A DNA stretch of 64,000 nt, taken from positions 32,001 to 96,000 of the IMG/VR virus record IMGVR_UViG_3300027770_000038; one strand, 5' to 3'. Source of the stretch: a virus (taxonomy: Duplodnaviria; Caudoviricetes). Position numbers and translations under genes: made by a program. The notes under the pieces are model-generated. The model was not told the DNA's origin, did not search any database, and saw only the letters and a list, made by a program, of their open reading frames with translations. This document shows positions 2,822-32,312 of this stretch, piece by piece; position 1 is the stretch's first letter; the number at the start of each line of letters is the position of its first letter.

Positions 2822-3307
2822 TTACACGCCCGTGCTTCCAAATCCGCCCGTTCTTTCGGTTGTAGACAAGGATTCAACTTGCTGCCAATCAATAGCGTGA
2901 TACTTTTCAATAATTAACTGAGCAATTCGATCTCCAGCTTTAATATTAAAATCAAAATTTGAACCAGCAATATTTGGAGTAAGTCCCATCATGCTTGCGA
3001 GATCAATACTCAAATTCATTAAGACGACTTTAACTTCTCCACGATAACTAGAATCTACAACTCCAGCAAGGACATCAATGCCATTCTTAACTGCTAGACC
3101 ACTACGAGGAGCAATTCTCGCGTAGTATCCTTCGGGCACTTCGATTGAAAGACCAGTGCTAACGAGAGCGCGACTCATCGGTTTAACCCTAACGTTTTCA
3201 GTCGCGTAGAGGTCATAACCTGCGTCTCCAGTCTTTTGGCGAGTTGGAGTAATCGCTAGATTATTCAGCTTTACGAATTTAACAGGAACTATTGATTCTA
3301 TAGCCAT
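2822..3307 (-). CDS. dut: trimeric dUTPase
   Basis: All five motifs present: AGYDL, RSGLA, GVVDSSYRGE, GDRIAQL, RTGGFGSTG. Confidence 0.95.
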   Translation of the reverse strand: MAIESIVPVKFVKLNNLAITPTRQKTGDAGYDLYATENVRVKPMSRALVSTGLSIEVPEGYYARIAPRSGLAVKNGIDVLAGVVDSSYRGEVKVVLMNLSIDLASMMGLTPNIAGSNFDFNIKAGDRIAQLIIEKYHAIDWQQVESLSTTERTGGFGSTGV

Positions 3308-3756
3308 GATTGTAAATGAGATTTGATCTTGGAGATGTTTTCTTCTTTTAGCTCTTGGTAATGAATTTTATAAAAATCAAATACTTCTTTGAATTTATTG
3401 CATTGCTCGTATTCTTTGATATAGAATACTCTTTGGATCTCATGAGCAACTATGTCCTTGGCGCAAGCAAAGCAAGGAGAAATTGTCAAGCATATGCTCT
3501 CTGCCTCTCCTTTCCTTATCAATGACAAGGCGTTAGTCTCCGCATGAATCATTATTTCTCGCTTCTTCGGACGATTCTCTTCCTTCTTCATCCACTCTTT
3601 GACAGCGAACCCTTTTTTCAATCCGTTGTAGCCGGTTGAAATGACCCTTCCCTCTTTATTTAGAATGCAAGCTCCGACTTTGGTGTGAGGGTCTTCGCTT
3701 CTAGACGAAGCAGCAAGGGCCATCATGCAACCATATTCGTGCCAAGAAAGTCTCAT
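3298..3756 (-). CDS. dCMP deaminase
   Basis: HAE and PCxxC zinc motifs, RSEDPHTKVGAC; likely start at ATG 3756 (MRLSW) rather than 3840. Confidence 0.9.
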   Translation of the reverse strand: MRLSWHEYGCMMALAASSRSEDPHTKVGACILNKEGRVISTGYNGLKKGFAVKEWMKKEENRPKKREIMIHAETNALSLIRKGEAESICLTISPCFACAKDIVAHEIQRVFYIKEYEQCNKFKEVFDFYKIHYQELKEENISKIKSHLQSWL

Positions 3757-3763
3757 GGATAAT

Positions 3764-3792
3764 ATTGTCGCAAATCGGCAAAGAAAAGTCAA
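3764..3792 (-). promoter_or_regulatory. sigma-70-type promoter for dCMP deaminase/dUTPase
   Basis: TTGACT-17-GACAAT, ending 7 nt before ATG 3756. Confidence 0.55.
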
Positions 3793-3833
3793 GTTTATTT
3801 GGAGCTTTTTCTGGCATTCTTCTATTATTAAAT

Positions 3834-4250
3834 ATGACAATTTCAGATGCGTCTACAAAATTATATCAATGGTACTTTCAGAATGATAGTTTCTGTGAGA
3901 ACGATTTCACTAAACTGCTTACCATTTCAGAAAACCCAGAATCTGAAAGGGCTTGCGTGTTGTGTGCGCTTGAGGAATTTGAGAAGAACGGGATCGTAAA
4001 AAAGGCTAGTTTTAAAAATAATAATTATTGGATTCTCTCTAAGAAGTTTGACGCATACGAACAAAGCGTGACCATCTCTCCCAAAACTTCTTTTGTCATC
4101 TCGGAAGTAATCAATTCTTACTGCTCTCTGATTGAAAATGAATCTGAAAGATGCAACCCAATTTCGATCAGCGAGAAGGACATCAAGAACCTTCTGGTAA
4201 TTTTCAACGACTTGCGCGAAAAAACTTTTGACAAAACCAAGACCTCATGA
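3834..4250 (+). CDS. hypothetical protein
   Basis: ORF track gives 3765..4250; the more likely start is ATG 3834 (MTISDAS). Confidence 0.65.
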   Translation: MTISDASTKLYQWYFQNDSFCENDFTKLLTISENPESERACVLCALEEFEKNGIVKKASFKNNNYWILSKKFDAYEQSVTISPKTSFVISEVINSYCSLIENESERCNPISISEKDIKNLLVIFNDLREKTFDKTKTS

Positions 4251-4257
4251 CTAGGAT
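4228..4257 (+). promoter_or_regulatory. sigma-70-type promoter driving the non-coding segment
   Basis: TTGACA-18-TAGGAT, with the -10 box inside the inverted repeat ACCTCAT-N7-ATGAGGT (4242-4262). Confidence 0.6.
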
Positions 4258-4262
4258 GAGGT

Positions 4263-4690
4263 AGTTCTTTATCTGGGTGAACAGCCTACTGGGGACATCC
4301 CAGTTCAAACGCATCAGAGACATCAGGCCCGTAAAAAGACCCTAGTCAACTGGATCTAAGAAATCCAACGCCATTTCGGGAAAAGGCGACGTTCCGCAAG
4401 GAGAAGACTTTGAAAAAGCTGAAACCTCATTTTTCTCAAAAGAAAAAGCTGGCAGTTCCGTCCTAAGAGAAATCCCACCCGCAAAGGTAAAGAACTTAAA
4501 CAAAGAGTTAGTCATTAGCTAGGCTCTCTTGAGAGGGCCGAAAATCTGATAAACAGACTGCGAAGGATTGAAATGGGTAACTCTTGATTATTTTGAAATC
4601 TCTATTTTAATTTAGAGATGACAAGCCTTTCCTATTTTAACTCAAAGAAAAATCATAAAGCTGGCAGTTCCTTTTACAAACCAGCCTTTC
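4263..4690 (+). ncRNA. candidate large structured non-coding RNA
   Basis: No ORF of 60 aa or more. Long-range stems 4263-4279/4476-4496 and 4503-4516/4572-4585, many local hairpins, a closing hairpin at 4657-4689, and a start at the predicted TSS. Confidence 0.65.
4445..4671 (+). repeat. 15-nt direct repeat AAAGCTGGCAGTTCC
   Basis: Exact copies at 4445-4459 and 4657-4671. Confidence 0.9.
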
Positions 4691-4709
4691 TTAAATACTA
4701 TATTTTACT

Positions 4710-5342
4710 ATGTCTAACCAGTTTCTAGGTATTGCAGGTGTTGCTACTGTCGGTAAGGATACTTACTATAAATTACTAAAAGAAATTTGCTTAGAAGACT
4801 TTGGAGTAAACGTAGTTAGATTTTCTTTGGCAGATTCTTTAAAAAAAGACTTGTTCTCTTTTATCTTAGAAAAATACAATGTTGATATTTTTAATTGCTC
4901 TACTGAAGACAAAAACAAAGTAAGACATGAGTTAGTAAATCACGCAAGGACAATGCGGCAAAATACTAAAGGTAGGTATTGGATAGAAAAGCTTCAGTCT
5001 GAAATCGAAGCTTATAAAAAATCTGAAAATTTTAAACAGTCAGATATTTTTTGTGTAACTGATATTAGACACTTCGAATATCCTAGCGATGAAGTCGTCT
5101 GGTTAAAGGAAGAAAATAAAGGGTTTTTAATTTATGTTGAAAAATTTTTTGAAGACGGTTCAGTTTGCGCTCCTGCAAACGATGATGAGAGAAGAAATGA
5201 TCCTTTTCTTAGAAAAAATGCTGATCATTCTCTTTGTTGGAGGCATGGATGGCCTGAAAAATATTTAAAAGATTTAGTCAAAAAGACCCTTGACATTTCT
5301 ATAAAAAAAGGTAAGCTTTATACACATGATAGAATCAACTGA
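4710..5342 (+). CDS. deoxynucleoside monophosphate kinase-like P-loop protein
   Basis: GIAGVATVGKDT P-loop, SLADSLK, VTDIR motifs of phage dNMP kinases. Confidence 0.75.
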   Translation: MSNQFLGIAGVATVGKDTYYKLLKEICLEDFGVNVVRFSLADSLKKDLFSFILEKYNVDIFNCSTEDKNKVRHELVNHARTMRQNTKGRYWIEKLQSEIEAYKKSENFKQSDIFCVTDIRHFEYPSDEVVWLKEENKGFLIYVEKFFEDGSVCAPANDDERRNDPFLRKNADHSLCWRHGWPEKYLKDLVKKTLDISIKKGKLYTHDRIN

Positions 5343-5913
5343 CAACGAACTTGTAACAAAGGTAAAACTTCATCAATGCAACCAATCATTAAAAACTCTT
5401 ATAGAAAGGCATTCTCCTCTTTGTTTTGACATCTTTAAGAAGTATAATAAAATTCTTCAAGAAAGGGGGATAAGCCCAGAAGATCTTGTCAATGAAAAAG
5501 ATTACATTATTTATAAATGTACTCTTAATTTTGATGAAAATCAGAACAGTAAGTTTTCGACTTGGCTGGCTAATCATGTTAAATACAAATGTTTAACAAA
5601 CATTACAAAACACAAATGGACAATTTCTCTTGATGATGAAAATCAAAAGACATTAGCAGCAAATCTCTGTCAGCAGTCGAATGATTTTGAAGAAAAAAAA
5701 GATTATATCTTTAATCTACTTTGTCAAATGAAAGACAAAAGACTTGAAAAGATAATCCTGTTAAGATATTACGGAGACAAGTCCTCTCGCAAATGGAAGA
5801 ATATATCAAAAGAACTTGGAGTCACATATCAGACAGCAATCACTTTGCACAAAAAAGCTCTTGAATTTTTAAAGACTAAAATTGAGAGCAAAGAGATGCA
5901 AGATTTTGTATAA
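5326..5913 (+). CDS. phage RNA polymerase sigma factor (sigma-70 family)
   Basis: Region 2 (FDENQNSKFSTWL) and region 4 HTH (WKNISKELGVTYQTAITLHKKAL); TTGACA-16-TAAGCT just upstream. Confidence 0.8.
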   Translation: MIESTDNELVTKVKLHQCNQSLKTLIERHSPLCFDIFKKYNKILQERGISPEDLVNEKDYIIYKCTLNFDENQNSKFSTWLANHVKYKCLTNITKHKWTISLDDENQKTLAANLCQQSNDFEEKKDYIFNLLCQMKDKRLEKIILLRYYGDKSSRKWKNISKELGVTYQTAITLHKKALEFLKTKIESKEMQDFV

Positions 5914-5963: not shown

Positions 5964-6335
5964 ATGCCTACTCCTACTCCTAATACTAGCAATACTGAAA
6001 GCAATACAATTCGACGAGAACTTGGCGCACTTTGGAGCCGTAAAGGCTCTAGTGGTTCTGAGTATCTAACCGGGAAATTCCGCCTTAAGGACATCAAGGA
6101 TAACTTTGATGAAGTTAAGATTATTGTTTTCCCAAATAACAAGAAGAAGAACGATGGCTCTCCTGATTTTCAGATCTTTATGGAGAAGGCCCAATATGAA
6201 ACCCTCACTGGAACTCAAGGCGCTCCTGCTTCTGAACCCGCTCCAGCAGCAAAGACTCTCCCTCGCGTAGCAACGGTTAAGCCATTTCCAAAGGCCGCAG
6301 TTAGTCAAGTTAGCGCAGATGATGATTTGATCTAA
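5964..6335 (+). CDS. putative ssDNA-binding protein (DUF736-like)
   Basis: LGALW...YLTG...FPNNKK...PDF core, Pro/Ala linker and acidic-hydrophobic tail DDDLI. Confidence 0.55.
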   Translation: MPTPTPNTSNTESNTIRRELGALWSRKGSSGSEYLTGKFRLKDIKDNFDEVKIIVFPNNKKKNDGSPDFQIFMEKAQYETLTGTQGAPASEPAPAAKTLPRVATVKPFPKAAVSQVSADDDLI

Positions 6336-7815: not shown

Positions 7816-10713
7816 ATGAGCAAGGCTATTAACTTCCTAGATGAAATGGCGAACTTTACGTTCGTTACAAAATACGCAAAATACGATGAAAAGAAGAAGC
7901 GTAGAGAAACATGGGACGAGACTGTTACAAGAGTCGAGACCATGCACTTGAAGAAATTCAAATACCTACCAAAAGAAGACAAATATGAAATCTCAAAAGC
8001 TTTCGACTTGGTTAGAGAAAAGAAAGTCACTCCTTCAATGCGGAGTATGCAATTCGGCGGCAAGGCTGTTGAAGCGCATAATGGAAGAATTTTTAATTGT
8101 CTTTCAAAAGATACATCATTCATTACCTCTAATGGCGTAAAGAAATTTTCTGACTTTTCTGATGGAGACAAAACGATTGTTTTAACTCATAAAGGTAATT
8201 GGAAAAATGCAACTGTAAAATATTTTGGAGATGATTTTCTTTATCCAGTTACAGTTTCTAGGTGCAAGAATAAACAAACCATTTTCGCTACTAAAAACCA
8301 TCGATGGATTCTTAAAGACGGCTCCTTTGTCTCTTCTCTTGAAGAAGGACTCGCTCTAAGAGGCGCAGAAGACATCTTCTCTTCTTTTAATTATGACAGT
8401 GCTTCTCCATTGGAAAAGCTATATTGGTGCTATGGATATGTTTTTGGAGATGGCTCGATAGTAAATAGCAAAAATAATTCCTATTCAATGGTCCGACTTT
8501 GCAAGAAAGATCAGAAATATCATACTCGTTTCGAAGAGATTGGATTTAATACGTCTTTACCTTTGTCATGTAATGGAGACTTTTTTGCTTACACCGGATC
8601 TTATTTAAAGACTGCTCCAAATCCAGAGATTGATTCTCCAGAAATGATTAGAGCATTTGTTGCTGGCTATTGTGATGCAGATGCTGCTAAAAACTCAAAT
8701 TCTAATAGAAACTATAATACTGACAATAGATATTCAAGCATTCAAGCCAGCGGTGAAAAACATATTGATTTTATAAGATCATGTTTCCCAATTGCAGGAA
8801 TTTATATTGTATCTGAAGAAGATCTAAGCGGAGAAAAGACTAACTTTGGAATTAGGACTTCTCCAACAATTAGATTTAGAATTTTTAATGCTCCAAATAA
8901 TAAAGAAAATAGCAATACTCCTTTTGTTGTTTCTTCTATTGGAGAACCTGTTTTTGGAGAAACTTGGTGTTTAATTGTCGAAGATGATGAATCGTTTGTT
9001 TTCCCAAGCGGCTTGGTTACTGGCAACTGCGCTGTACGCCATATTGATTCTATTCGTTCTTTTGCTGAGTCCTTTTATACTCTTCTTTGTGGTACTGGTG
9101 TTGGATTTGGCATCACTGATAAGCTGCTCAATCGGCTCCCTGATCTCGTTAACGCTAAAGACAAGACAGGAGCGGTAATCACTTATACTGTAACTGATAA
9201 TATTGAAGGTTGGGGCGACTCTATTGAAGCTCTATTAAATTGTTATTTCAAGAATACTGCTTATTCTGGGCGCAAGATTGTTTTCGATTATAGCAAAATT
9301 CGTCCAAAGGGCGCGAAGCTCAAGACTGGCGGCGGAAAAGCTCCCGGTTACAAGGGGCTCAAGAACTGCCATTTCAAGGTTAAGCTCTTGCTTGACACTA
9401 TTATTGAAGACAGCAATCAAACTCGCCTTAAGACCGTCAATGCCTATGATATTTTAATGCATTGCGCTGACGCAGTCTTGTCAGGAGGCATTCGCCGCTC
9501 TGCTTGCAGTGTCATTTTTGATGCTCAAGACAAGGACATGATGAACGCAAAGACTGGCGACTGGTTCCTTGACAACCCCCAGAGAGCTAGGTCAAATAAT
9601 TCAGCAATTATTATTCGCGGCAAGACTTCTTATGCAGAGTTTGAAACTCTCATTAATAAGACTAAAGAGTTTGGTGAGCCGGGATTCCTATATGTTGTTG
9701 ACGAGGATCAGCTTTTAAATCCTTGTTTTGAAATCTCGTTTATTCCTATCACTAAAGATGGACGTTGTGGGTTCCAGTTCTGCAACCTTACTTCTATTAA
9801 TGGCGCTAAAGTTAAGTCTCTAGAAGATTTTAAAAACGCTTCTTGGGCAGCTTCATTGATAGGTACATTGCAAGCAGCATATACATCTTTCCCTTATCTT
9901 GGCCATACATCAGAAGAATTAACTGAACAAGAAGCCTTGCTTGGGGTTTCTATCACTGGAATGATGGATAATCCAGACATTCTTTTCAATCCAGAATATC
10001 AAAGAGAAGCTGCCAAGGTATGTGTCAATACTAATATTGAATGGGCTAAGAAGATTGGAGTCAATCAAGCCTCTAGAGTAACTTGTATTAAGCCAGAAGG
10101 AACCAACTCAATTGTATTGTCTGCTGCTTCTGGAATTCACCCTCATCACGCTCGCAAATACTTCCGCCGAATTCAAGTCAACAAGGAAGATAACGTCTAT
10201 AAGTTCTTTAAGATGTTTAACGAACACGCTTGCGAAGAGAGCGTTTGGAGCGCAAACAAGGTAGATGATGTTATTACATTTCCTATTGAAGTAGATGAGA
10301 ATGTCAAGATTAAGTCTGGACTTAATGCCATTGAACATCTAGACCTTATTAAGTTGACCCAAACTAATTGGGTAAATTGCGGGACAACCGAAGCCAACAA
10401 GAAACCATTAAATCATTCAGTTAGCTGCACAGTTATCGTTAAAGATGACGAATGGAAGACTGTTACAGAATACCTTTACAAGAATCAAGAATACTTTACT
10501 GCTGTTTCATTACTGCCTTACTCTGGAGATAAAATTTATCAACAAGCTCCAATGGAAGCCGTCATAACCCCTGAAGACGAAGAAAAGTTCAATAAGCTTC
10601 AGGCAGAATGGTCACAGGTTGATTTCACCAAACTTATTGAGGATGAAGACGAGACAAGTCATACTCAAGAAGCTTCTTGCGCTGGAGGGAAATGCGAGCC
10701 AGTTAGTTTGTAA
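7816..10713 (+). CDS. nrdJ: class II (B12-dependent) ribonucleotide reductase with intein
   Basis: PSMRSMQFGG, GGIRRSA, NPCFEI finger loop, CNLT, TCIKPEGT, C-terminal CAGGKC; no small-subunit gene nearby. Confidence 0.85.
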   Translation: MSKAINFLDEMANFTFVTKYAKYDEKKKRRETWDETVTRVETMHLKKFKYLPKEDKYEISKAFDLVREKKVTPSMRSMQFGGKAVEAHNGRIFNCLSKDTSFITSNGVKKFSDFSDGDKTIVLTHKGNWKNATVKYFGDDFLYPVTVSRCKNKQTIFATKNHRWILKDGSFVSSLEEGLALRGAEDIFSSFNYDSASPLEKLYWCYGYVFGDGSIVNSKNNSYSMVRLCKKDQKYHTRFEEIGFNTSLPLSCNGDFFAYTGSYLKTAPNPEIDSPEMIRAFVAGYCDADAAKNSNSNRNYNTDNRYSSIQASGEKHIDFIRSCFPIAGIYIVSEEDLSGEKTNFGIRTSPTIRFRIFNAPNNKENSNTPFVVSSIGEPVFGETWCLIVEDDESFVFPSGLVTGNCAVRHIDSIRSFAESFYTLLCGTGVGFGITDKLLNRLPDLVNAKDKTGAVITYTVTDNIEGWGDSIEALLNCYFKNTAYSGRKIVFDYSKIRPKGAKLKTGGGKAPGYKGLKNCHFKVKLLLDTIIEDSNQTRLKTVNAYDILMHCADAVLSGGIRRSACSVIFDAQDKDMMNAKTGDWFLDNPQRARSNNSAIIIRGKTSYAEFETLINKTKEFGEPGFLYVVDEDQLLNPCFEISFIPITKDGRCGFQFCNLTSINGAKVKSLEDFKNASWAASLIGTLQAAYTSFPYLGHTSEELTEQEALLGVSITGMMDNPDILFNPEYQREAAKVCVNTNIEWAKKIGVNQASRVTCIKPEGTNSIVLSAASGIHPHHARKYFRRIQVNKEDNVYKFFKMFNEHACEESVWSANKVDDVITFPIEVDENVKIKSGLNAIEHLDLIKLTQTNWVNCGTTEANKKPLNHSVSCTVIVKDDEWKTVTEYLYKNQEYFTAVSLLPYSGDKIYQQAPMEAVITPEDEEKFNKLQAEWSQVDFTKLIEDEDETSHTQEASCAGGKCEPVSL
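8098..9027 (+). mobile_element. intein with LAGLIDADG homing endonuclease (310 aa)
   Basis: Junctions IFN|CLSKDT and VTGN|CAV; block B TKNH; LAGLIDADG-like YGYVFGDGS and VAGYCDADA. Confidence 0.9.
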
Positions 10714-10764
10714 ACTTTTGTGTCTTTTTTATTCATATGGTGCTTCTAGCGTGTAGAGTATTAT

Positions 10765-10890
10765 ATGAACTTTACTGTTGGTTTTTCCAACGAAATTAAA
10801 GCATTAAAAAAGCAAGATGACTGCAAAAAATACAGTCAATTAAAAGACAGCGACTTTCTATTTCAGAGAGTCGCTCTTTTCTTGTCTTAA
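10765..10890 (+). CDS. small ORF (41 aa), possibly a gene remnant
   Basis: MNFTVGFSNEIKALKKQDD..., starting 8 nt after a GTGTAG motif. Confidence 0.4.
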   Translation: MNFTVGFSNEIKALKKQDDCKKYSQLKDSDFLFQRVALFLS

Positions 10891-10940
10891 CGCCTTAAAA
10901 ATGTAAAAACCGCTATTGAAACTTATATTTAATAACTAAT

Positions 10941-11225
10941 ATGACACCAGCAACAGGAGCGACTATGGATTGGCAAACTTTATTTAATATAGCATTATCT
11001 ATTCTCAGCTTCTTAGCTGCTTGGATTTTCAAAAGGAACTTCCAAATGATAGACAAACAAGAAAACAAAGTATCAGATCTTGAAAAGAAGATCTACGGCA
11101 TCGAAATAGCACTTCCTAAAGAATACGTCAATAAAGAAGACCTTAATAAATTCTCAGAGAACATTAATGCTAGATTTGATAAACTAGAAGTTAAGCTTGA
11201 TAATATCATTGAAAGAAGTAAATAA
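10941..11225 (+). CDS. membrane-anchored coiled-coil protein (holin-like)
   Basis: One N-terminal hydrophobic helix followed by a coiled coil; start may be ATG 10965. Confidence 0.55.
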   Translation: MTPATGATMDWQTLFNIALSILSFLAAWIFKRNFQMIDKQENKVSDLEKKIYGIEIALPKEYVNKEDLNKFSENINARFDKLEVKLDNIIERSK

Positions 11226-12025
11226 TGCTTTCCTTTTTAGTATTAAATTACAATCGACCTAAAGAAACTGAACTTTGTTTAAAATCAATTAAGCAATTTA
11301 CTAAGTTCAATCACGAAATAGTTTTACTAAATAATGGCGGCGAAGACCACGCTGCCATTTTTTCTTTTTTCAATCAAGGATTAATTGATAAACTCATCTT
11401 AAGGAAAAAAAATTCTGGCTGCGGGTTAGGGACAAGAGAGCTTTTTAATGACTTTAATCTTGATAATGATTATGTAGTTTATGTACAATGCGATCAGTTC
11501 ATGGTTAGAGACTTTACTATTGAAGAGTTCAATAGCTACAAACAAGCATTAGATCAAAATAAATCTGCTGCTCATGTTGACCTTTCTGGAAATCAAGGCA
11601 ATGGCAGATATTCTGAAAGAGCGCACTTAACTAGCAAAAAGTTCTATAACTCTATTCCCAATTCAAAAGGTGGCCCCGGACCTTATGCAAACGAGTTATG
11701 GACAGAAGAATCAATTCAAAATTTCTATAAAGATAATCAGTTAAAATTCTTTGTGGCTACATTGTTGTTTGCTGATAACGGCAAGGTTTCAATACGGGAA
11801 TACCCTTGCGGCGGAAGGCTCATCCAACACACAGACACAAAAGAAGTAATTATCGATTCTCCAATCAAGCAAAGGATAGATTTCCCCAATGTAAAGCTCA
11901 CAGACGGAGAGTGGGAATCTATTTTAAATGACACTTGGATTAACGGTACAATCCCAGAAGGCCATAAAAATAATTCTTTTTTATGTTGGAAAGATTCTTT
12001 GGGGATTGATATAATGAATGGATGA
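11225..12025 (+). CDS. GT2-like glycosyltransferase
   Basis: N-terminal SFLVLNYNRP, LLNNGG and NSGCG motifs. Confidence 0.7.
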   Translation: MLSFLVLNYNRPKETELCLKSIKQFTKFNHEIVLLNNGGEDHAAIFSFFNQGLIDKLILRKKNSGCGLGTRELFNDFNLDNDYVVYVQCDQFMVRDFTIEEFNSYKQALDQNKSAAHVDLSGNQGNGRYSERAHLTSKKFYNSIPNSKGGPGPYANELWTEESIQNFYKDNQLKFFVATLLFADNGKVSIREYPCGGRLIQHTDTKEVIIDSPIKQRIDFPNVKLTDGEWESILNDTWINGTIPEGHKNNSFLCWKDSLGIDIMNG

Positions 12026-21477: not shown

Positions 21478-22624
21478 TAACTTTACTTTTTGGGACAGAG
21501 TTAAAGCAGCTTTGTTCGTGCTTAATAAAAAGAATAGACTGACCACTGGGCCAAAAGTTCTTGAACTAGAAAGAAAATGGGAAAAAATTGCTGGTATCCA
21601 AACAAAATGCGTTGCTGCTTCTTCTGGGTCAACAGCTAACCATCTCTTGGTTGAAACGTTTATTCAAAGCCTTAATCTTAATCCCAAAGATATTATAGTT
21701 TTCGTTCCATCGACTACTTGGGCATCGTCAGTAAGCCCTTGGATAATGAGAGGATGCAAAGTCGTTTTTGTAGACATTAATCTTGGGGACTTTAGTTTTA
21801 ATTATGATGAATTAGAAAAGAAGCTTGAATCTTACAAAAATCCAAAAAAGATTAAAGTAATCTGGCCTACCGCATTGATTGGTTTCGTTCCTAACATAAA
21901 TAAGTTAAAAGAGCTAAAAGAAAAATACAATACATATCTATTTGCTGATCTTTGTGAAACTACAATGGGAAACTATTATGGCAAAAATATTCTTAGTTGT
22001 TTTGATATGGCGACTACTTCTTTCTTTTGGGCACATCAAATCTGCGGAATTGAGATGGGAATGCTCTTTATGCAAGAGAGCTTTATTAAGAACTCTGAGC
22101 TTTATATAAACGCCCAAATGATTCGCAGTCACGGCTTAACTAGAGTGCTTCCAAAAGGCAATGTAACTCGAAAGACAATAGAAGACAGCGCACCAGAAGT
22201 TGATCCTGAGTTCTTGTTTTATAAAATAGGCACTAACTACAGGACTACTGATTTAAATGCTTTTTTTGCATTGATGGATACAGAAAAGTATTATGCATAC
22301 ATAAACGAAAGACGAGAGATCTGGGAATATTTTATCGCTAATCTTCCTCTAGAATATAGAAAACTTAATTTAAATATCGTTCCTTTTTGTCTTCCTTTAA
22401 TAAGCGAAACTAAATCAATCAAGGAAATAAAGAAAAAATTAAACGAAAACGGATGGGAAACTCGTCCAGTGATTTGTTATCTGCCAATTAATCCTGCGTT
22501 TGAACAGTTCGCCAAAGGAGAAAGGTTTCCAAATAGTAAATTCTTAAATGATAATGGATTTTATGTTGGATTAAATAAAGATATTACTTTCAAAGATATC
22601 GACAAACTGATTTCTCTACTATGA
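21455..22624 (+). CDS. colD: PLP-dependent GDP-4-keto-6-deoxymannose 3-dehydratase (ColD-like, DegT superfamily)
   Basis: SSGSTAN and DLCE; SFFWAHQI has His at the position of the usual Schiff-base Lys; RSHGLTR resembles ColD HGWTR; no E1-type GRDCxC Fe-S motif. Confidence 0.7.
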   Translation: MKYPLQTDNFTFWDRVKAALFVLNKKNRLTTGPKVLELERKWEKIAGIQTKCVAASSGSTANHLLVETFIQSLNLNPKDIIVFVPSTTWASSVSPWIMRGCKVVFVDINLGDFSFNYDELEKKLESYKNPKKIKVIWPTALIGFVPNINKLKELKEKYNTYLFADLCETTMGNYYGKNILSCFDMATTSFFWAHQICGIEMGMLFMQESFIKNSELYINAQMIRSHGLTRVLPKGNVTRKTIEDSAPEVDPEFLFYKIGTNYRTTDLNAFFALMDTEKYYAYINERREIWEYFIANLPLEYRKLNLNIVPFCLPLISETKSIKEIKKKLNENGWETRPVICYLPINPAFEQFAKGERFPNSKFLNDNGFYVGLNKDITFKDIDKLISLL

Positions 22625-23541
22625 AAATAGCTTCATTTGGAGCTAGATTTTTTGGCGGTCAAATTTCTAGAATAGAAGAGGGCTTTTGTAAATTAGGACA
22701 TGAAATTAATTTTGAATGCCCTGACGTTATTTTCAGTAATGATCCGGGTTTTTATGAAAAAGCATACAAGTTAAAAGAAAAGAACCCAAAAGCAAAACTA
22801 ATATTTAACGTATTAGACCTGCCTCCTCATTATATAGACGAATCTAAATACGACATCTCTAGGTATCCTTACATAAATAACCCAAATAGAGACTTCAATC
22901 CAGAAAAATTAATAAACTGGCTTAAAAAAGCAGATATTATTACCTGTATTTGCGAAGAAGTAAAATGGCAGATAAAAAAGTGGTGCGGATTTGACAGTGT
23001 AGTTATTTTCAATCCAATCAAAGATGTTTCTTTTTTAAATCTTCCTCTACAGAATAAAGCGAAGAATCAAAGAGGCATTCCTTATAAATACCTATACGTT
23101 GGAAGAGCTTGCGATATGAACAAAAGATTCAATCTCGTTTATCAAGCAATAGCTAAACTTGGAGACCCTGCTGACTCTTTAGCTATCATTGGCTCAGAAA
23201 ATCCCGGTTGGGGAGACTATTATGGCGTATTTGAAGATGAAGTTTTAAATTACTTTTATAATTCTGTAGAGTATTTAATGTTTCCTTCTGCTTTTAAATC
23301 TATTGGTCTGCCAGCTTTAGAGGCTGTAGTTTGCCAAACAATTCCAATAGTAACTAATGACGATCCAGTAACCAAAGAGTTTTGGGCCGAGATAGGAGTA
23401 GATGCCAATAAAATTGCAGAATCAATTTCAAACCCTGACTGGAATCAAAAAGCTAAAAAATTTGTAAAAGACAACAGCGACCTATATAAACAAAAATTCG
23501 ATAAAGTGACTATCGCTGCTAACATATTAAATCTACTATGA
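22621..23541 (+). CDS. GT4-like glycosyltransferase
   Basis: YVGRA...KR and FPSAFKSIGLPALEA motifs. Confidence 0.7.
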   Translation: MKIASFGARFFGGQISRIEEGFCKLGHEINFECPDVIFSNDPGFYEKAYKLKEKNPKAKLIFNVLDLPPHYIDESKYDISRYPYINNPNRDFNPEKLINWLKKADIITCICEEVKWQIKKWCGFDSVVIFNPIKDVSFLNLPLQNKAKNQRGIPYKYLYVGRACDMNKRFNLVYQAIAKLGDPADSLAIIGSENPGWGDYYGVFEDEVLNYFYNSVEYLMFPSAFKSIGLPALEAVVCQTIPIVTNDDPVTKEFWAEIGVDANKIAESISNPDWNQKAKKFVKDNSDLYKQKFDKVTIAANILNLL

Positions 23542-31677: not shown

Positions 31678-32312
31678 TGGAAAATCTTCTTCGTTATGAT
31701 AAAGATAAAGTCTATACTTTTATAGACTTAGAGACCGAGAATTTATGCCTTAGCTTTATAAATAATCGCCCTTGGCAATGCGGCATGATCAAAGTTAAAG
31801 GAAATGAGGTCTTAGAAACTTCTGATATTTATATTAAATGGGATAAGCCTATTAATGTTAGCAAAGAAGCTGCCCAAATTACTCGTTTCGATCAGTACAA
31901 ATATAATAAAATTGCTATCCATTCTAGCGAAGCTATTAAAACTATAGCACATTGGTTAGAAAATTGTGATTATATAATCGGGCACAATATCTTAAACTTC
32001 GATATGTATCTCATTAAAGATTATTACGAAATGTATGGGAGAGAATGGAAGCACTTAGTAAGTAAAGTTATAGATACTAATTGTCTAGCGAAGGGAGTTA
32101 AATATGAAATCCCTTACTCTCAAGATATGAGCTTAATTGAGTACCAGTATAGAGTGCTGAATGAAAGAAGAAAAGGAGTGAAAACTAACCTTACAAGCCT
32201 TGGAAAAGAATATAGCATAGAACACGATTACGAGACTCTTCACAACGCACTTAACGATTTACATTTAAACATTAAAGTATGGAACAGACTGAAATTCCAA
32301 ATCGCAGTATGA
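31674..32312 (+). CDS. DEDDh 3'-5' exonuclease (DnaQ-like)
   Basis: ExoI DLETE, ExoII GHNILNFD and ExoIII HNALND. Confidence 0.85.
   Translation: MMENLLRYDKDKVYTFIDLETENLCLSFINNRPWQCGMIKVKGNEVLETSDIYIKWDKPINVSKEAAQITRFDQYKYNKIAIHSSEAIKTIAHWLENCDYIIGHNILNFDMYLIKDYYEMYGREWKHLVSKVIDTNCLAKGVKYEIPYSQDMSLIEYQYRVLNERRKGVKTNLTSLGKEYSIEHDYETLHNALNDLHLNIKVWNRLKFQIAV

Follow-up and report, generated by a model that had tools for sequence, protein, structure and literature searches.

Evidence for a new family of structured non-coding RNA with twin identical segments at the head of a sigma-factor operon in uncultured tailed phages

Introduction

The DNA analysed here, referred to below as the window, is a stretch of 64,000 nucleotides (nt) from a virus (Duplodnaviria; Caudoviricetes), positions 32,001 to 96,000 of the IMG/VR record IMGVR_UViG_3300027770_000038. 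It is part of an uncultured tailed phage whose genes include those for dUTPase, dCMP deaminase, ribonucleotide reductase and tail proteins, and its replication genes encode a DnaB-like helicase, a primase, a DnaE-type polymerase and a UvsX-like recombinase. Our subject is a gap between the gene of a small, predicted winged-helix protein (gene X) and an operon that begins with a deoxynucleoside monophosphate (dNMP)-kinase-like gene and a phage sigma-factor gene. An initial annotation, made from the sequence alone, had proposed that this gap encodes a novel multi-domain non-coding RNA (ncRNA) of about 430 nt on the + strand. Here, we show by comparison of related loci that the gap very probably encodes a real, structured ncRNA of a family absent from Rfam, which we call family A. 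A feature that goes beyond the initial description, and that we regard as the key one, is a 15-nt sequence that stands twice at the locus, once inside the folded RNA (4445-4459) and once shortly before the operon (4657-4671). The features of the locus are collected in Table 1.

Table 1. Features of the family A locus and of the second RNA (positions in the window unless a locus is named)
Feature	Position	Strand	Remarks
Family A ncRNA	4263..~4700	+	5' end inferred from the promoter position and the start of P1
RNA promoter TTGACA, 18 nt, TAGGAT	4228..4257	+	-35 box 4228-4233, -10 box 4252-4257; score 10/12
P1 closing helix	4263-4274 with 4485-4496	+	at least 7 base pairs (bp) in 49/51, scored per sequence
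P2 closing helix	4275-4279 with 4476-4480	+	helix 1: 6 pairs, all compensatory, 92.1% paired
P3 hairpin ACTGGG/CCCAGT	4288..4304	+	helix 2: 5/5 pairs compensatory, 79.6% paired
Junction AGGCCCGTAAAAAGAC	4325..4340	+	nearly invariant in alignments A6 and A7
Hairpins P5 (4351-4367) and P6 (4369-4388), inside helix P4	4351..4388	+	helices 3-6
P7-region hairpin TCC-GCAA-GGA	4393..4402	+	from per-sequence folding
P8 hairpin TTTTTCT/AGAAAAA	4430..4447	+	helix 7: 5/5 pairs compensatory, 89.3% paired; abuts repeat copy 1
Repeat copy 1 (tail 1) AAAGCTGGCAGTTCC	4445..4459	+	directly after P8; unpaired in the model
Long-range helix AATCC/GGATT	4471-4475 with 4565-4569	+	helix 8: 98% paired, 3 pairs compensatory
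Domain 2	4503..4585	+	closing helix AAGAGTTA/TAACTCTT; hairpin 4522-4539; 3' strand of the long-range helix
Hairpin ATCTCTA/TAGAGAT (domain 3 of the initial annotation)	4598..4619	+	from per-sequence folding
Repeat copy 2 (tail 2), identical 15-mer	4657..4671	+	ends 38 nt before the kinase ATG
Candidate kinase promoter TTTACA, 17 nt, TACTAT	4673..4701	+	score 9/12; kept in close relatives
Gene X, 138 aa, winged-helix protein (predicted)	3834..4250	+	usual gene upstream of family A RNA
dNMP-kinase-like gene	4710..5342	+	PHROG 139, E 7e-10
Phage sigma-factor gene	5326..5913	+	Pfam Sigma70_r2 25.2 bits (cut-off 24); PHROG 351 E 5.6e-12
DUF736-like protein	5964-6335		23.9 bits, cut-off 22.1; constant member of the operon after sigma
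GT-B glycosyltransferase, 359 aa	6337-7416		in the operon after sigma; PDB profile match E 3.3e-6
Family B RNA	L014:2570-2925; L015:1752-2112		also for example in L042, L052, L054, L066, L083

Results

A non-coding gap that begins at a promoter

Between the stop codon at 4250 and the ATG at 4710, no open reading frame (ORF) of at least 40 amino acids (aa) is found on the + strand. The only ORFs in the gap lie on the minus strand (4342-4515 and 4356-4484), and both are broken in close relatives by 1-nt indels at alignment columns 214 and 259. These indels, together with a conservation of the DNA (99%) above that of the flanking genes, exclude a protein-coding or decayed gene.

The RNA had been proposed to start at the predicted transcription start site of a TTGACA/TAGGAT promoter, and our comparison bears this out. 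Scored against a sigma-70-type consensus, this promoter ranks first among 7 promoter-like sites in 3600-5400, compared with a mean of 4.4 sites in shuffled sequences, and the predicted start at ~4263 is the first base of the closing stem. Its position is kept among relatives. In the 11 close sequences the -35 box is invariant and the -10 box reads TAGGAT or TAGTAT in all. Further out in the family, reading by eye shows a TTG.../TAnnnT pair, usually preceded by an A-rich tract, in at least 37 of 52 representatives; the pair ends 4-8 nt upstream of where P1 begins. Of the 52, 21 reach a strict promoter score of at least 9/12. A terminator-like hairpin lying over the -10 box (4242-4262) is not conserved in relatives and was set aside as chance.

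Mapping to metatranscriptomes had been suggested as a check, and assembled contigs from RNA libraries of 4 runs in 4 studies do cover the RNA, at 3835-4533, at 4384-4712, at 4282-4578 together with 4551-4702, and at 4285-4681. The first of these spans gene X into the RNA, and two of the contigs end at 4702 and 4712, before or at the kinase ATG, which weakly hints at the 3' end. We take the contigs as support for expression, not as proof of it. Parts of the kinase gene have no cover by such contigs, to which we attach no weight.

Conservation and spread of the family

A search of IMG/VR with the kinase protein gave 15 loci, 13 of them with the gap region. Identity of these loci to the window is 80-85% over 5.6 kb and 86-93% over the gap region; for L001 the two values are 98% and 99%. 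When the 5.6 kb were divided into 56 bins of 100 nt and compared in 11 relatives, the top two bins were 4310-4409 (99.2%) and 4410-4509 (94.6%). The collection was widened with a kinase profile (80 loci), with a DNA profile of the region (15 distant members, each of which immediately precedes the kinase gene) and with a pattern of the conserved core that has 19 fixed bases (38 viral and at least 118 metagenome stretches). In total, 159 profile matches reduced to 69 distinct full-length domain-1 sequences and to 53 representatives below 97% identity. Members come from viral and metagenome contigs, and the DNA runs that hold the RNA stretch are labelled as freshwater, lake, wetland, runoff or drinking-water metagenomes.

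In reference genomes the core pattern had 37 hits, all without a match to the family profile, and they revealed neither a prophage nor a host; by our own estimate, ~37 chance hits are expected for 19 fixed bases in 596 Gb. The cultured phage collection yielded neither a close relative nor an X when searched by blastn with the region and by tblastn with X, the 359-aa protein and the polymerase.

No known RNA family was matched at the locus. At the gathering threshold, the Infernal search of the 64-kb window against Rfam 15 gave 0 matches to its families, among them tmRNA, RNase P, 6S, group I and II introns, T-box, GOLLD, ROOL, HEARO, OLE and raiA. Within 4100-4800, allowing E up to 10, there were 7 weak matches with E of 0.24-9.5, far below gathering, and on 20 related loci the single match was a tRNA. 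ARAGORN found 0 tRNA or tmRNA genes in the window, L001, L013, L014 and L015. These results agree with the initial annotation, which had recognised no hallmarks of tRNA, tmRNA, RNase P or introns. A literature search, at the level of the titles and abstracts consulted, found no description of the family A RNA. With no Rfam match and no published description found, we rate it a new class of phage ncRNA.

Covariation supports a folded RNA

The window sequence alone proves nothing about structure. Its minimum free energy fold has the long closing stem and most of the hairpins of the initial annotation, and the energy of this single-sequence fold lies within chance (z = -0.97 for the + strand and -0.17 for the - strand), so that the folding z-score proposed as a check gives no support by itself. 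The proof of structure is comparative.

For the comparison we used 51 diverse full-length sequences (set A8) and 51 pairs in 11 helices, the pairs being taken partly from RNAalifold and partly from our own reading, including a pseudoknot-type long-range helix. Standard pairing at these pairs is 92.8% compared with 76.9% in shuffles, 42 of the 51 pairs change on both sides and are thus compensatory by our own score, and the covariation score is 0.545 compared with 0.253, 0 of 500 shuffles being as high in a control that ignores relatedness. Among close relatives, compensatory changes are seen in the closing stem, in three domain-1 hairpins and in two domain-2 hairpins. Many G-U pairs are invariant. 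As each would be a C-A mismatch on the other strand, they confirm that the RNA is of the + strand, in line with the argument from G-U pairs made at the outset. Together with the conservation above flanking genes and the 1-nt indels, covariation in 11 helices upholds the proposal of a novel multi-domain ncRNA.

Domain 1 has 234 nt and is closed by P1 and P2, of which P1 was scored sequence by sequence because MAFFT had misaligned the outer stem. The P4-P6 region is 91-97.6% paired, with 14 of 16 pairs compensatory. The junction AGGCCCGTAAAAAGAC is conserved in 13 of 16 kinase-anchored sequences that were found without the pattern; since 13 of its bases were in the search pattern, its invariance elsewhere is partly selection. 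An equivalent of the P7-region hairpin at or below -3 kcal/mol, of varied sequence and mostly with a 4-nt loop, was found in 35 of 51 sequences, the copy of the window's own clade lying outside the tested segment.

The long-range helix reads AGUCC/GGACU in most members, with AAUCC/GGAUU, AGUCA/UGACU and AGUUC/GAACU as variants, and it makes domains 1 and 2 one molecule. In domain 2, helices 9-11 are 87-100% paired and the hairpin is compensatory among close relatives. The hairpin of domain 3 is more variable: a hairpin of varied sequence at or below -5 kcal/mol is present in 27 of 51 sequences and absent in 24, mostly of the L082 type. For the final hairpin, AAAGCTGG/CCAGCCTTT, the 3' arm was found in 4 of the 11 close sequences (the window, L001, L012 and L013) and is missing in 7, so on these alignments it is a lineage-specific element and not a family feature. 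The helices named in the initial annotation are all in the sequence and 10 of 11 are kept across relatives, in most cases with compensatory changes, the final hairpin being the exception. Its plan of separate domains needs revision in two respects, in that domains 1 and 2 are tied by the long-range helix, and in that the last hairpin is not family-wide.

Twin repeat

In 50 of the 51 sequences a stretch of 12-18 nt is repeated exactly, its copies lying 180-224 nt apart, and when the downstream part was shuffled a repeat of at least 12 nt arose in 1 of 1020 trials. Across lineages there are 29 distinct repeat strings (for example AAAGGATAAGCAGTCA, AAAGGCTGACAGTCAA, AAAGCTAGTAGCGC and GGAAGGAAGAAGTTAAA), and within each genome the two copies change together. 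The bases directly 5' of both copies are similar (CUCAARGRAAAAA), while each copy follows a hairpin of different sequence. In the window phage, copy 2 also takes part in the last hairpin, of which it forms the 5' arm (4657-4664, pairing with 4681-4689).

Copy 2 lies close to the operon. Its distance to the next ORF has a median of 45 nt (range 1-85, n=47), and a sigma-70-like promoter scoring at least 9/12 fits between the two in only 15 of the 47 loci. In L057, a tRNA gene (2367-2439; Rfam 71.6 bits) stands directly after copy 2 and before the kinase promoter, which suggests that RNA and tRNA are co-transcribed there and processed apart.

Several ideas about the repeat were tried and given up. 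The GAC.GCUAU segment, which is conserved, was considered as its pairing partner and pairs well with the L082-type repeat, with no advantage for the cognate combination (p = 0.94). For the GGACUG segment of domain 2, pairing with the repeat extends over 4-7 bp compared with a shuffled mean of 3.7, which is suggestive and too weak to claim. A role as a general promoter motif was rejected as the 7- to 9-mers of the repeat are not enriched elsewhere in the window. Third copies with 2 mismatches ~1.1-1.4 kb upstream in a few loci are apparently inside coding sequence and look like chance. The idea of a rolling-circle template was dropped, the spacing of 180-224 nt not being in multiples of three and a reverse transcriptase being unseen among the ORFs scanned.

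An 11-mer of the repeat, AAAGCTGGCAG, also occurs at 23308-23318 on the - strand, inside the ORF of a group-1 glycosyltransferase (22621-23541). A composition-based estimate gives a chance expectation of ~0.01 per strand, and on the + strand mRNA the 11-mer would be complementary to the repeat.

A second RNA in sister phages

In L014, L015 and ~28 other loci, a different RNA of ~340-400 nt, which we call family B, follows the X homologue. In L014 it has its own promoter, in L014 and L015 its first hairpin is T-loop-like, and a strong intrinsic terminator is found across the aligned members. RNAalifold predicted 36 pairs from 21 sequences, 22 of them compensatory. Near-identical segments flank the terminator; in 15 of 25 distinct sequences these agree exactly over 9-10 nt, and with mismatches they are visibly longer. 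Between family B and the operon there can be another ORF, or family B can sit on the opposite strand.

Rfam yields one sub-threshold hit only for family B in L014 and L015, and ARAGORN nothing. The nhmmer profile of family A had no significant hit in L014 and L015, and the family A covariance model R1 gave 7 scattered hits in 30 loci, with E of 0.1-1 and none at family B positions. By these tests families A and B are not one RNA family; they look unrelated and appear to share only position and layout.

Genes around the RNA

The pattern-derived loci were found by a DNA pattern and hence are unbiased for protein neighbours. In 43 of the 44 distinct loci of this kind with enough flank, the RNA is followed on its own strand by a sigma gene, either ~190-270 nt after domain 1 or, with the kinase between, ~805-875 nt after it. 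The kinase gene follows the RNA less regularly, in 32 of 52. The position upstream of kinase and sigma genes, on which the initial annotation had remarked, is confirmed at these frequencies. After sigma come the DUF736-like protein, the GT-B glycosyltransferase and a 114-aa protein.

Gene X is upstream of the RNA in 55 of 62 pattern-derived loci, and the exact repeats are kept in the 7 loci without it. Among kinase loci that lack the RNA, X is present in just 1 of 24. In distant lineages, X homologues of 27-49% identity precede the RNA. Searches with the X protein found no sequence match in Pfam or the PDB. Its AlphaFold model, with a predicted local distance difference test (pLDDT) score of 92, has an N-terminal winged helix and C-terminal helices. 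The best Foldseek matches are to MarR, BlaI and MecI, and they are weak, with E of ~0.01-0.04 and template modelling (TM) scores of 0.33-0.39; in the ESM Atlas, all leads were below 0.9. Alignment with homologues places the start of X at the ATG at 3834 and not at 3765. The ORF as listed (3765-4250) overlaps a minus-strand deaminase gene by 76 nt.

The candidate kinase promoter ends 8 nt before the ATG at 4710 and thus leaves almost zero leader, so that the kinase mRNA may be nearly leaderless if this promoter is used. A Shine-Dalgarno sequence is not visible at the kinase gene. In L013 the kinase homologue (3001-3630) has one in-frame stop codon, which may reflect a pseudogene, a sequencing error or recoding. 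L101 (1925-2419) is the sole locus seen in which an X homologue stands directly before a kinase-like gene, with a gap of ~15-80 nt; there is no room for the RNA between the two, and it may lie elsewhere or have been lost.

The cumulative GC skew of the 64-kb window has its global minimum at 4719, on a flat floor from ~3600 to 4800, and this minimum coincides with the divergence of the gene strands. Sugar-modifying genes are unusually many for a phage (11225-25351 and 35501-38582), and they include glycosyltransferases, epimerases/dehydratases and an aminotransferase. A stretch of 511 nt (10714-11224) between the ORFs 7816-10713 and 11225-12025, both of at least 100 aa, exceeds in length the gap studied here, which the initial annotation had taken for the longest non-coding gap of the window.

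Discussion

We have described a large, conserved RNA that stands before the sigma-factor operon of an uncultured group of tailed phages. The claim that this RNA exists is strong, and the claim about its mechanism is weak. After P8 the RNA displays a sequence of 13-18 nt that recurs ~200 nt downstream, at or just past the 3' end of the RNA. We suggest that a strong promoter of the host type (sigma-70-like), belonging to the RNA itself, drives its synthesis early. The RNA may regulate the sigma operon and so control the change from transcription with the host sigma to that with the phage sigma. The shared sequence would be an address, which could be read both on the abundant RNA and at the entry of the operon. 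At the entry, the form read could be the DNA shortly before the start of transcription or the leader RNA of the operon, and the RNA might either guide a factor to the entry site or compete with that site for the factor. The winged-helix protein X would be a likely but dispensable partner. As a whole, that is as a new ncRNA that regulates the sigma operon through an address, we put this forward tentatively as the best explanation and think it somewhat more apt to be wrong than right; the address mechanism of the twin repeat, taken on its own, is doubtful.

Several observations weigh against this explanation. The repeat has no conserved complement inside the RNA locus, as judged by contiguous complementarity and in six named segments. 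When repeats and GAC.GCUAU partner segments were swapped between lineages, the cognate combinations had a mean of -8.33 kcal/mol compared with -8.77 kcal/mol (permutation p = 0.94). The 64-kb window holds no third copy of the repeat and no enrichment of its 7- to 9-mers, and flanks of at least 8 kb at other loci have no consistent further copy. Since 7 of 62 loci keep the exact repeats without X, X is not an obligatory reader. No TnpB/Cas12f-like effector was found in the conserved operon or in the 32 of 65 listed window ORFs that were scanned. As many members were collected by the core pattern, the invariance of the core is partly selected. When the helix partners were slid by 1-3 columns, pairing fell to 29-46%, and this control flatters the fold, since the sequences aligned with MAFFT had themselves served, through RNAalifold, to derive part of the structure. 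Finally, the RNA-library contigs give no strand, ends or level of the RNA, and RNA libraries can hold DNA.

It is also conceivable that the RNA is a cis-acting leader, like a riboswitch or an attenuator, in which transcription from the RNA promoter runs into the kinase/sigma operon, the fold governs translation or read-through, and the repeats are alternative pairing partners. The gap from copy 2 to the next ORF is short (median 45 nt) and has room for a promoter scoring at least 9/12 in only 15 of 47 loci, and terminator-like hairpins are found at the RNA 3' end; in the L082 type the hairpin immediately precedes copy 2, and in the window, L013, L240 and the L128 type copy 2 is its 5' arm. The highly conserved unpaired junctions would suit a ligand pocket, and one RNA-library contig extends across gene X and into the RNA. 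However, a shared partner strand that covaries with the repeats was not found, and the tRNA gene of L057 stands between copy 2 and the kinase promoter. In some lineages good promoters follow copy 2, such as TTGACA-16-GATAAT in L056 and TTGACT-17-TAAATT in L014, family B is separable from the operon by an ORF or lies on the other strand, and two RNA contigs stop at 4702 and 4712 and do not extend through the kinase gene, which is a weak hint in the same direction. We consider a leader of this kind unlikely.

A protein sponge or two-site scaffold is a still less likely explanation. Here the hairpin, the A-rich linker and the repeat would form a protein-binding module that is present twice, for X or another protein, as two copies or a dimer. 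That CUCAARGRAAAAA-like bases precede both copies, each after a hairpin of different sequence, is compatible with such a module. So is X itself, whose winged helix and C-terminal helices have, in the predicted model, an architecture like that of the dimeric repressors BlaI and MecI (Foldseek E ~0.01, TM 0.35-0.39), and which is tightly linked to the RNA, only 1 of 24 RNA-less kinase loci having it. Yet the 7 of 62 loci that lack X keep their repeats, and a protein reader would have to shift its specificity in step with 29 repeat strings. Winged helices, moreover, mostly bind double-stranded DNA.

The arrangement of hairpin and adjacent short sequence recalls the nutL and nutR sites of phage lambda and the putL and putR sites of HK022, which occur twice per genome and act in transcription past terminators. 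The two sites of such a pair measure ~30-70 nt and belong to separate operons; they match within one phage and vary from one related phage to the next. The family A repeat is like them in that a hairpin and a short sequence occur twice per genome, the same within a phage and varied between lineages. It is unlike them in belonging to a folded RNA of 440 nt, and an N-like protein, at which no search was aimed, was not identified here. 6S RNA, a long rod with a central bubble, is likewise an abundant ncRNA tied to the usage of sigma factors. Family A shares the tie to a sigma factor and differs from 6S RNA in its branched two-domain fold and in the lack of an Rfam match.

GOLLD and ROOL are associated with phages, and some such RNAs are found in lake or marine metagenomes. 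A fixed position before a sigma operon and twin identical segments are, to our knowledge, not features of GOLLD, ROOL, OLE or raiA, and both set family A apart from these RNAs, as does the absence of an Rfam match. Family A otherwise resembles these four in being a large, multi-helix, strongly covarying ncRNA that came to light through comparative analysis and whose biochemical function is unexplained (cf. 10.1101/2024.12.08.627333).

The nearest published parallel is the rpoE-dcas12f system of Bacteroidetes (Hoffmann et al., bioRxiv 2025, PMC12259090). Its loci have the order helix-turn-helix protein, abundant (hth-associated) ncRNA and extracytoplasmic function (ECF)-type sigma factor, and its guides of 14-16 nt match DNA upstream of regulated operons, including the sigma operon, with the transcription start 46 bp downstream of the target-adjacent motif; the guide RNAs are 85-105 nt long and carry the guide at the 3' end (PMC12259090). 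Compared by gene order only, the winged-helix X, the ncRNA and the sigma gene of our locus follow the same plan, and as with these guides, an RNA segment of 13-18 nt equals a site a median of 45 nt before the first ORF of the operon. In contrast to those guide RNAs, family A is ~440 nt long, has copy 1 internally and sits in a phage. That 12-18 nt of copy 1 recur exactly ahead of the operon in 50 of 51 sequences would suit a guide of this kind; copy 1, however, is not 3'-terminal, and copy 2 may be within the RNA. Membership in the rpoE-dcas12f system fails on its defining effector, as neither the operon nor the 32 ORFs scanned hold a Cas12f/TnpB-like gene.

A more specific form of the address explanation would be RNA-addressed control of transcription that is independent of Cas proteins, in which copy 1, with its 13-18 nt, recognises the identical DNA ~30-50 bp upstream of the start of the sigma operon. 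The RNA, perhaps bound to sigma or to X, would switch on or limit the phage sigma factor, and family B would do the same job in sister phages. We think this combination of claims improbable.

To the same degree we would be surprised if the repeats had no function of their own and were merely kept alike by gene conversion, the RNA acting in some other way, for example in an RNA-only assembly or as a ribozyme. No reader of the repeat was found, the phage encodes a recombinase, and in the close relatives L081, L113, L205 and L262 the copies diverge after the first 14 nt. The hairpins beside the repeats, however, are not homogenised, and a length of 12-18 nt is small for conversion. If the direct repeats recombined, domain 2 would be lost more often, whereas 50 of 51 sequences keep both copies, and family B shows the same layout independently.

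Very improbable is an origin-of-replication RNA, in which the transcript, or copy 1 paired with the DNA of copy 2, primes or activates phage replication: the GC-skew minimum at 4719, the divergence of transcription at the locus and the phage's own DnaB, primase, DnaE-type polymerase and UvsX-like recombinase would fit, but a switch of gene strand alone can yield a skew minimum, an elaborate covarying fold with a strict link to sigma is not expected of an origin transcript, and iteron arrays were not found at the locus.

Large folded RNAs of bacteria and phages without a known job are rare, and they have repeatedly led to new biochemistry. The RNA described here occurs widely among phage contigs from lakes and oceans, surpasses the adjoining genes in conservation, and stands at a fixed place at the head of a phage sigma-factor operon, beside a small, predicted winged-helix protein. 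As the putative address is identical at two sites and drifts between lineages, the hypothesis is open to reporters with compensatory mutations. If the address is read as DNA, it would represent RNA-directed, Cas-free control of a promoter; a reading as RNA would make it a new kind of decoy or switch for the early-to-middle transition in a large group of uncultured phages.

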